The notes under the pieces: generated by a model
Told to the model about the DNA's origin: nothing
What the model saw: only the letters and a program-made list of their open reading frames with translations
Database searches by the model: none
Shown: positions 57,480-57,602 of the stretch, in pieces
Numbering within the stretch: the first letter of the stretch is position 1
Layout: each line of letters begins with the position of its first letter
Translations under genes and position numbers: made by a program
DNA from: a virus
Taxonomy: Duplodnaviria; Caudoviricetes
Strand: one strand, 5' to 3'
Length of the DNA stretch: 64,000 nucleotides
IMG/VR virus record: IMGVR_UViG_3300029305_001557
Location: 12,396-76,395 of that record

Positions 57480-57602
57480 CAGGGAGAATAACGCTATTGA
57501 TTTATAGATACCATAGCAGGATTTGAACCTGCGTACATTCCGTGGAAGGGAATTGTCTTAACCGCTTGACAATATGATGTAATCAATAACTGCACAACCC
57601 TG
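57480..57602 (-). ncRNA. Y RNA-like element D containing a complete, unpermuted tRNA body (anticodon UCC)
   Basis: CAGGG/CCCTG and GTTATTGAT/ATCAATAGC helices around a 72-nt cloverleaf at 57508-57579 with no CCA. Confidence 0.75.

Follow-up and report, generated by a model that had tools for sequence, protein, structure and literature searches.

An intact tRNA in a conserved, Ro60-linked RNA frame of a tailed phage and the switching of its anticodon among related phages

We have analysed a 64,000-nucleotide (nt) stretch of DNA, the window, which corresponds to bases 12396-76395 of the 76,395-bp virus record IMGVR_UViG_3300029305_001557 (Caudoviricetes), a record with direct terminal repeats that is rated complete. 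Six transfer RNAs (tRNAs) are located in a row by ARAGORN, all on the minus strand and upstream of a gene, rsr, for a Ro60 ortholog. The first of these, a 73-nt tRNA-Gly(tcc) at 57507-57579, is enclosed by a paired leader and trailer, referred to here as the frame. A first-pass annotation made from the sequence alone had described this unit as a Y-RNA-like RNA wrapped around an intact, unpermuted tRNA. The unit has the following elements, from its 5' end to its 3' end.

57479-57603, minus strand: whole framed unit, 125 nt, a tRNA with paired leader and trailer
57598-57603, minus strand: outer helix of the frame, 5' strand ACAGGG, pairing with 57479-57484 in the minimum free energy (MFE) fold
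57591-57597, minus strand: internal loop of the frame, 5' side UUGUGCA, presumed protein-contact site, near-invariant in relatives
57581-57590, minus strand: inner helix of the frame, 5' strand GUUAUUGAUU, pairing with 57493-57502
57508-57579, minus strand: complete tRNA, positions 1-73 (ARAGORN, Rfam tRNA model, stem covariation, body match to unframed tRNA-Glu)
57573-57579, minus strand: acceptor 5' strand CAUCAUA, which is the frame motif
57555-57570, minus strand: D arm
57537-57553, minus strand: anticodon arm, with the anticodon UCC at 57544-57546
between the anticodon and T arms, minus strand: variable loop, 4 nt
57516-57532, minus strand: T arm
57509-57515, minus strand: acceptor 3' strand
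57508, minus strand: discriminator U73
57503-57507, minus strand: C74 (57507) and a 4-nt linker without an encoded CCA, the sequence after U73 being C then UAUA
57493-57502, minus strand: inner helix of the frame, 3' strand AAUCAAUAGC (MFE fold, covariation)
57485-57492, minus strand: internal loop of the frame, 3' side GUUAUUCU, near-invariant in relatives
57479-57484, minus strand: outer helix of the frame, 3' strand CCCUGU (MFE fold, covariation)

The tRNA module follows the normal order of acceptor, D, anticodon, T and acceptor, and retains U8, A14, the D-loop GG and the T-loop UUCAAAU. It scores 54.0 bits against the Rfam tRNA model (RF00005; gathering score 29), with C1xA72 marked as a non-standard pair, and this, together with the ARAGORN call, bears out the first-pass description of an intact cloverleaf tRNA-Gly(UCC) lacking an encoded CCA. 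An encoded CCA is present in the cluster's five other ARAGORN tRNAs and in a further tRNA-model match at 56767-56869. The framed unit is the sole tRNA-Gly of the genome, and a scan of the complete genome with the tRNA model detected no tRNA outside this cluster. Genuine, unframed and CCA-ended tRNA-Glu(UUC) of related phages has a body in common with the framed tRNA, with the same invariant D arm (GUCAAGNGGUUAAGAC), 4-nt variable loop and loop context CCCUUUCACGG, the acceptor stem being the sole difference. The anticodon loop of one orthologous unit (locus L014) is CUUUCAC, giving Glu UUC, compared with CUUCCAC in the window, so that the earlier view of a tRNA-Glu with a single change holds as well. 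By its sequence, the tRNA body derives from tRNA-Glu, and it looks like a tRNA-Glu grafted onto a pre-existing frame. The CAUCAUA acceptor motif is found also in units whose cargo is not an intact tRNA.

The frame itself consists of a 6-bp outer helix, a conserved internal loop (UUGUGYA / GUUNUUCU) and a 10-bp inner helix. The MFE of the unit is -31.6 kcal/mol versus -22.5 +/- 3.2 for shuffled sequences (z = -2.8), in keeping with an outer stem that clamps both ends, as originally proposed. The motif TACATCATA occurs exactly on the minus strand at 56201, 56364 and 57573 only, at the same place in each of three framed units, confirming that the 5' acceptor strand is a shared motif. These units align across their flanks (GGGUUGUGNAG, helix, UACAUCAUA ... 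helix, CGUUNUUCUCCC; alignment A1) and have a common fold of outer helix, loop and inner helix, the inner-helix sequences differing while pairing is kept. The two additional units are listed below, R1 denoting a covariance model built from A3, a MAFFT alignment of 16 orthologs of the framed tRNA.

56248-56395, minus strand: second unit, a permuted YrlA-like tRNA-shaped module (Rfam YrlA, model R1, fold)
56104-56232, minus strand: third unit, with the frame variant CUGUAUA / GGUGUUCU and a non-tRNA interior (alignment A1, fold, R1 32.8 bits)

In the second unit the order is anticodon-like hairpin, T arm, closed acceptor and D arm. It matches Rfam YrlA at 38.4 bits (E 2e-6), under the gathering score of 69, and model R1 at 50.8 bits over its full length. 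The anticodon-like hairpin of such permuted units varies, with GUU, UUU, CAU and CUU observed.

About 300 metagenome homologs of the window Rsr were found, down to ~63% identity on phage-sized contigs of 70-85 kb. The relatives examined here comprise 11 IMG/VR loci and 13 from ENA and Logan assemblies; the IMG/VR loci were found by a homolog-alignment search, a search with the single Rsr protein giving none. The framed unit is conserved in the related loci (blastn 74-86% identity), and a tRNA is called by ARAGORN inside the frame in 35 instances. In A3, 91.9% of pair cells are standard compared with 74.2% after shuffling (none of 500 shuffles reaching the observed value), with compensatory changes at four of the six outer-helix pairs and six of the ten inner-helix pairs. 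In A6, a model-fitted alignment of 34 units which leans towards structure and with which the MAFFT result agrees, 93.7% of cells are paired versus 41-49% when partners are slid, and compensatory changes are present at all six outer-helix pairs (98% of cells paired) and at seven of ten inner-helix pairs (97% paired). The D, anticodon and T stems covary in both alignments. The first-pass annotation had made its proposal depend on conservation of the flanking stem in relatives, and both frame helices do covary across the 34 units. Between the helices, the 5' loop is [U/A]UGUG[C/U]A in 34/34 units with near-zero column entropy and the 3' loop is G[U/C]UUNNCU in nearly all; the U-G pairs of the inner helix work in minus-strand RNA only. 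Fixed loops between covarying helices look like the signature of a sequence-specific protein site. Model R1 separates the two classes of tRNA, 36 framed tRNAs scoring 70-137 bits over their full length and ordinary tRNAs at most 54 bits over the tRNA part only, and none of the ordinary tRNAs of ~20 loci scored in this way is framed.

A decaying relic, that is, a pseudo-tRNA drifting neutrally in a duplicated Y-RNA frame, could produce the 8-nt anticodon loops and odd anticodons of some relatives, described below, as well as the mismatched first pair. It is nevertheless very improbable, as the four tRNA stems and both frame helices pair by way of compensatory changes among loci whose Rsr proteins are 61-87% identical, the D and T loops remain canonical, the promoter is conserved and none of the 35 framed units carries a stop anticodon.

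The surrounding features place the framed units between a promoter and the presumed partner gene.

57665-57693, minus strand: promoter P1, TTGACA, 17 nt, TGnTATAAT (12/12 consensus match, perfect extended -10)
56696-56668, minus strand: second perfect extended -10 promoter (consensus match)
56049-56091, minus strand: intrinsic terminator-like hairpin after the third unit (19-bp stem, then a U-rich tail)
54357-56000, minus strand: rsr, gene for a 547-aa Ro60 ortholog with TROVE and vWA domains, which is the presumed partner of the frame (Pfam and PDB matches)

The framed tRNA would be the first element of a transcript from P1. L014, L024, L015, L028 and L029 have a P1-like promoter as well, 46-91 nt before their first framed unit. 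The rsr product has both parts of a Ro60 protein, the TROVE HEAT-repeat ring (Pfam TROVE 57.5 bits, E 1.8e-15, cut-off 23) and the vWA domain, the latter a weaker match (vWA_Ro60 22.9 bits, under its 27.7 cut-off). Its nearest structures in the PDB are those of Thermus phage phiLo Ro60 (9KOP and 9L5Y, E 1.5e-20) and of D. radiodurans Rsr (2NVO). Between the end of the framed tRNA unit and the start of rsr, downstream in the same orientation, lie 1.5 kb, less than the ~4 kb within which YrlA and bacterial Y RNAs are expected, and the placement is repeated in all related loci. In the complete genome the framed-tRNA model finds three units only, all less than 1.6 kb upstream of rsr.

As the related loci had been found through Rsr, searches starting from the DNA of the frame were also run. 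A 5'-frame pattern gave 95 IMG/VR matches, of which ten are true frames, each followed after a few hundred bases by rsr in the same orientation; no rsr match was detected in the other 85 stretches. In JGI metagenomes, two true frames, both beside rsr, are present among the 120 matches listed, and no rsr match in the other 118 stretches among the matches listed, but these are mostly chance matches and the association test is weak. Three regular-expression 'frames' with 243-nt spacing were rejected as chance matches in coding sequence. At L013, where Rsr is only 45% identical, the frame is still present, though its loop is a variant one. Against the INPHARED phages, blastn of the region returned generic tRNA matches only and no frame relative, the closest deposited phage Rsr being 28% identical (tblastn). 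Given the shared frame, the fixed loops and the rsr linkage, the frame is most likely a docking site for the phage Rsr. The central contention of the first-pass annotation, that an intact unpermuted tRNA occupies the same frame as a permuted YrlA-like RNA, thus stands on the paralogy within the window, the covariation of 34 units and the linkage to rsr.

These data bear on an alternative, an ordinary tRNA-Gly gene whose leader-trailer stem serves in processing or insulation, perhaps as a site of the RNase III type, and is unrelated to Rsr. In its favour are the good tRNA scores, the position in a tRNA operon behind a strong promoter, and the fact that the unit is the only tRNA-Gly that the genome has. 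We regard this explanation as improbable, since non-tRNA and permuted modules are found in the same frame right beside rsr, the fixed loops and covarying helices carry a protein-site signature, two helices of only 6 bp and 10 bp with a 7/8-nt loop between them would be short for RNase III, the ordinary tRNAs of ~20 loci lack a frame, and true frames are found beside rsr only. Furthermore, ordinary tRNA genes keep their anticodon between close relatives, which is distinctly not the case for the framed units, as follows.

window, unit 57479-57603, minus strand: Gly UCC
L014 ortholog: Glu UUC
L024 ortholog: Arg UCU
L015, L016, L026 and L027 orthologs: Cys GCA
L028 and L029 orthologs: Tyr GUA
L009 and L008 orthologs: Gly UCC
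L004 ortholog: Gly UCC in an 8-nt loop
L003 ortholog: Lys UUU
L011 ortholog: Cys GCA
L012 ortholog: Val AAC
L006 ortholog: Asn GUU
L010 ortholog: Asp GUC

The anticodon stem is constant (AUUCY/RGAAU), and the switches are therefore point mutations and not arm swaps. Among tRNA bodies at least 80% identical with the anticodon removed, the anticodon differs in 47 of 65 framed pairs (72%) versus 3 of 138 ordinary pairs (2%), and among those at least 85% identical in 14 of 31 framed versus 1 of 90 ordinary pairs, a contrast which is large although the compared pairs are not independent. In a second type of framed body the anticodons are Ser(UGA), Lys, Asn and Pro, and an 8-nt loop also occurs; by contrast, a framed Pro(UGG) unit is constant. 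Anticodon loops of 8 nt are present in four framed units, ~1 in 10, at L004 4623-4749, L026 948-1082, L028 1569-1698 and L241 1767-1894, the loops being CUUUCCAC, CUUGUUAA, CUUUUCUC and UCUCCCCA, respectively. The predicted amino-acid identity of a framed tRNA can differ between near-identical phages, and phage 'tRNA genes' annotated in such a setting may not be ordinary decoders.

Several additional observations were made in these loci. The 103-nt tRNA-model match at 56767-56869 (minus strand, 44.3 bits), missed by ARAGORN, has a D arm resembling that of tRNA-Glu, a normal T arm and an acceptor stem that is perfectly paired and carries ACCA, with ~44 extra nt in place of the anticodon arm; it was considered as the missing ordinary tRNA-Gly and rejected, having no homology to the tRNA-Gly of relatives and a D arm like that of tRNA-Glu. 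An apparently structured RNA of ~250 nt between tRNA-Arg and tRNA-Leu (57060-57318, minus strand), parts of which are kept in L009, L011 and L012 (blastn), has no Rfam match, nor has a stretch of ~150 nt between tRNA-Met and the YrlA-like unit (56396-56551, minus strand). The tRNA-Met(CAU) at 56552-56627 (minus strand), downstream of the second consensus promoter, shows two acceptor pairs that are non-standard in the Rfam alignment, 1:72 being one of them. A type II hammerhead ribozyme match at 61010-61073 (minus strand) scores 38.8 bits, barely over the gathering score of 37. In relatives, a second permuted layout is present on the frame, in the order T arm, closed acceptor hairpin, D-like arm and anticodon-type hairpin, with the loop CUUGAAA (UGA) in 6/6 sites (L008 634-781, L009 2972-3118, L011 3048-3196, L012 2305-2453, L006 4587-4734 and L010 4536-4684). 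In L241 an open reading frame of the PD-(D/E)XK family (2365-2790) lies inside the tRNA cluster. The only match among 185,579 species genomes, L150 (SABI01000303.1, 2.8 kb), carries rsr (73% identical) and frame units and is binned in a Spirochaetia metagenome-assembled genome; it is probably misbinned phage DNA.

The interpretation we favour, to which we give about an even chance, is that the unit is an Rsr-docked, tRNA-bodied Y-type RNA that is processed by RNase P, completed to CCA and used as a re-aimable spare tRNA. In this scheme the leader/trailer frame and the CAUCAUA motif would dock the phage Rsr, and the cargo of the frame is a complete tRNA in place of the usual permuted, anticodon-less tRNA mimic, the acceptor stem of a tRNA-Glu-type body having been turned into the third helix of the frame. 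The anticodon loop would be the evolving working end, frame and body being held while the anticodon is point-mutated in close relatives. Host RNase P would cut at C1, with trimming to the conserved C74 and completion to CCA proceeding as in M. smegmatis YrlA, in which a 7-bp acceptor is cut by RNase P, CA is added in vivo onto an encoded C and the RNA stays on Rsr (PMC4201824). The freed tRNA could then act as a quickly re-aimable spare for a scarce or attacked host tRNA, for example the target of an anticodon nuclease, the frame and Rsr serving its maturation, protection or timed release. There is precedent for phage tRNAs that act against defences cleaving host tRNAs (PMC10264068, PMC11555353).

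Processing is supported by the seven-position acceptor stem, by N73-C74, which is invariant in the 16 orthologs of A3 (the L241 ortholog lacks C74), by the full CCA that five framed units encode, and by the distribution of U73, seen among framed units only with Gly or Cys anticodons. U73 is the discriminator required by the bacterial glycyl- and cysteinyl-tRNA synthetases (GlyRS and CysRS). In ten loci of the clade of the window, CCA is encoded by 73 of 82 ordinary tRNAs versus 5 of 15 framed tRNAs. The remark in the first-pass annotation that the tRNA may need to be processed out before it can be charged would fit both N73-C74 and the M. smegmatis precedent. Use as a tRNA is supported in that the framed Gly unit coincides with a missing ordinary tRNA-Gly. 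In 8/8 relatives of the window clade whose first unit is known, an ordinary CCA-ended tRNA-Gly(UCC) accompanies a non-Gly framed unit, whereas the window and L241 lack an ordinary tRNA-Gly(UCC) and both have Gly-type framed units (UCC and a CCC-like 8-nt loop). A Gly-type framed unit is thus found in 2/2 genomes without the ordinary tRNA-Gly versus 0/8 with it (Fisher 0.02). The two genomes without it probably belong to a single lineage, so that this complementarity amounts to about one event, a point against the interpretation.

Other observations also count against processing and use as a spare tRNA, and several of them would suit a tethered decoy instead, in which the unit, whole or only nicked by RNase P, stays bound to Rsr and offers its tRNA body and anticodon loop to host anticodon nucleases or other tRNA-binding factors as a competing substrate or an inhibitor, never being charged or taking part in translation. 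The 1:72 mismatch is conserved, the pair never being standard in 16/16 orthologs of A3 (C1xA72 in the window) and being unpaired in 28 of 33 rows of A6. Such a mismatch weakens EF-Tu binding, as in initiator tRNA. The acceptor stem is fixed and non-cognate. The bacterial GlyRS identity set is U73, C35 and C36 together with G1-C72, C2-G71 and G3-C70; the window unit has U73, C35 and C36 but an acceptor of C1xA72, A2-U71 and U3-G70, and in relatives G1-C72 and U73 are both found in the unframed tRNA-Gly(UCC). Anticodons change without matching changes in the body, giving unnatural, unchargeable or poorly decoding versions, namely Ser(UGA) without a long variable arm, Val(AAC) and the four 8-nt loops. 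A long variable arm is needed by seryl-tRNA synthetase. Of 29 framed anticodons, nine are already present on an ordinary tRNA at their own locus and to that extent redundant, a count no different from the shuffled expectation of 10.7 +/- 2.1. The permuted modules on the same frame, whose anticodon-like hairpins also vary, could not be released as tRNAs. Apart from the decoy, neither RtcB nor an RNA ligase, either of which would be a repair partner, was found when sought in the phage genome; the published Ro-binding motifs GNCGAAN0-1G and GGUCCGA are not in the frame; and Rfam YrlA (RF02553; gathering score 69) gives no match to 57479-57603 even at E up to 10.

A decoy role has a precedent in the proposal of Hughes et al. 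that the YrlA tRNA-like domain may competitively inhibit anticodon nuclease (PMC7790460). However, it is difficult to see why N73-C74 would be invariant and a full CCA occasionally encoded if the 3' end were not matured, U73 is restricted to Gly or Cys anticodons, the framed Gly stands in for the missing ordinary tRNA-Gly in the window and L241, and a Val(AAC) anticodon or an 8-nt loop mimics no natural target. We consider the decoy a serious but rather unlikely explanation; the two readings are close, and our slight preference is for a tRNA that is processed and serves as a re-aimable spare. A broader proposal that would accommodate either role, and which we advance more tentatively still, is of a programmable Ro60 particle, in which a fixed docking frame plus an equally fixed tRNA body would be re-aimed by single-base anticodon changes at whichever host tRNA is cleaved or withheld, serving as a decoy or an on-demand spare.

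What the tRNA-like domain of bacterial Y RNAs does has been an open question since 2014. Because the domain is here a whole tRNA, and because its anticodon loop, a part that YrlA lacks, changes fast, the anticodon end would appear to be the working surface. Two published ideas become directly testable in this family, namely that anticodon nucleases are competitively inhibited and that Y RNAs originated from tRNAs. As normal and permuted modules are carried on one frame, the family would, if that origin is true, represent a living series for the derivation of Y RNAs from tRNAs.

The literature searched, which was covered in part, contained no Ro60-linked frame around an intact tRNA and no anticodon switching in such RNAs. 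The closest known system is YrlA (Y RNA-like A; RF02553; Chen et al. 2014, PMC4201824; Wang et al. 2018, bioRxiv 10.1101/312249), found in phages and bacteria, which is likewise a non-coding RNA within a few kb of the Ro60/Rsr gene on the same strand, with a 5'/3' stem containing an internal loop and a module with a D arm, T arm and acceptor helix. In YrlA, however, the module is permuted, the T arm preceding the D arm, with a closed acceptor loop, no anticodon loop and no free CCA end (10.1101/312249), the Ro-binding stem occupies the site of the anticodon arm, and GNCGAAN0-1G is located near the 5' end (Chen et al. 2014). In contrast, the window unit is in the normal tRNA order, its open acceptor ends run into the frame, its anticodon loop is a canonical 7 nt, and its 5' strand (ACAGGGUUGUGCAGUUAUUGAUUACAUCAUA) contains no CGAA; Rfam Y_RNA does not match the unit either. 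The unit is therefore classed as working like a Y RNA but not as a member of RF02553, from which it departs in score, motif and topology.

The M. smegmatis YrlA (Chen et al. 2014) resembles the unit in having a 7-bp acceptor stem inside a Y RNA and one encoded C after the discriminator. Its halves stay joined by the Y stem, on Rsr, whereas the same two cuts in the window unit would release an entire tRNA from the frame. The Thermus phage phiLo Ro60 with Yrl1 and Yrl2 is similar in that a phage Ro60 is preceded by upstream RNAs with a stem, bulge and second stem, and this Ro60 forms a RYPER-like complex with host PNPase (PMC12135203); the phiLo RNAs carry a CGAA motif and no reported tRNA module, while the window unit has another loop motif and a full tRNA cargo. 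Phage tRNAs that counter defences (van den Berg 2023, PMC10264068; Azam 2024, PMC11555353; PARIS, PMC11464382) are, like the framed units, phage-encoded with anticodon-loop sequence under selection, and they are strongly expressed. They are free-standing and of fixed identity, in contrast to the framed unit with its Ro60-type frame, its mismatched, non-cognate acceptor and an identity that changes between close relatives. Finally, permuted tRNA genes of algae and archaea, transfer-messenger RNA and viral tRNA-like structures are also tRNA-shaped modules with unusual connectivity or extra domains, but they are not linked to Ro60. Permuted tRNA genes give normal tRNAs after rejoining, and transfer-messenger RNA and viral tRNA-like structures have a fixed aminoacylation identity, unlike the switching anticodons of the framed units described here.
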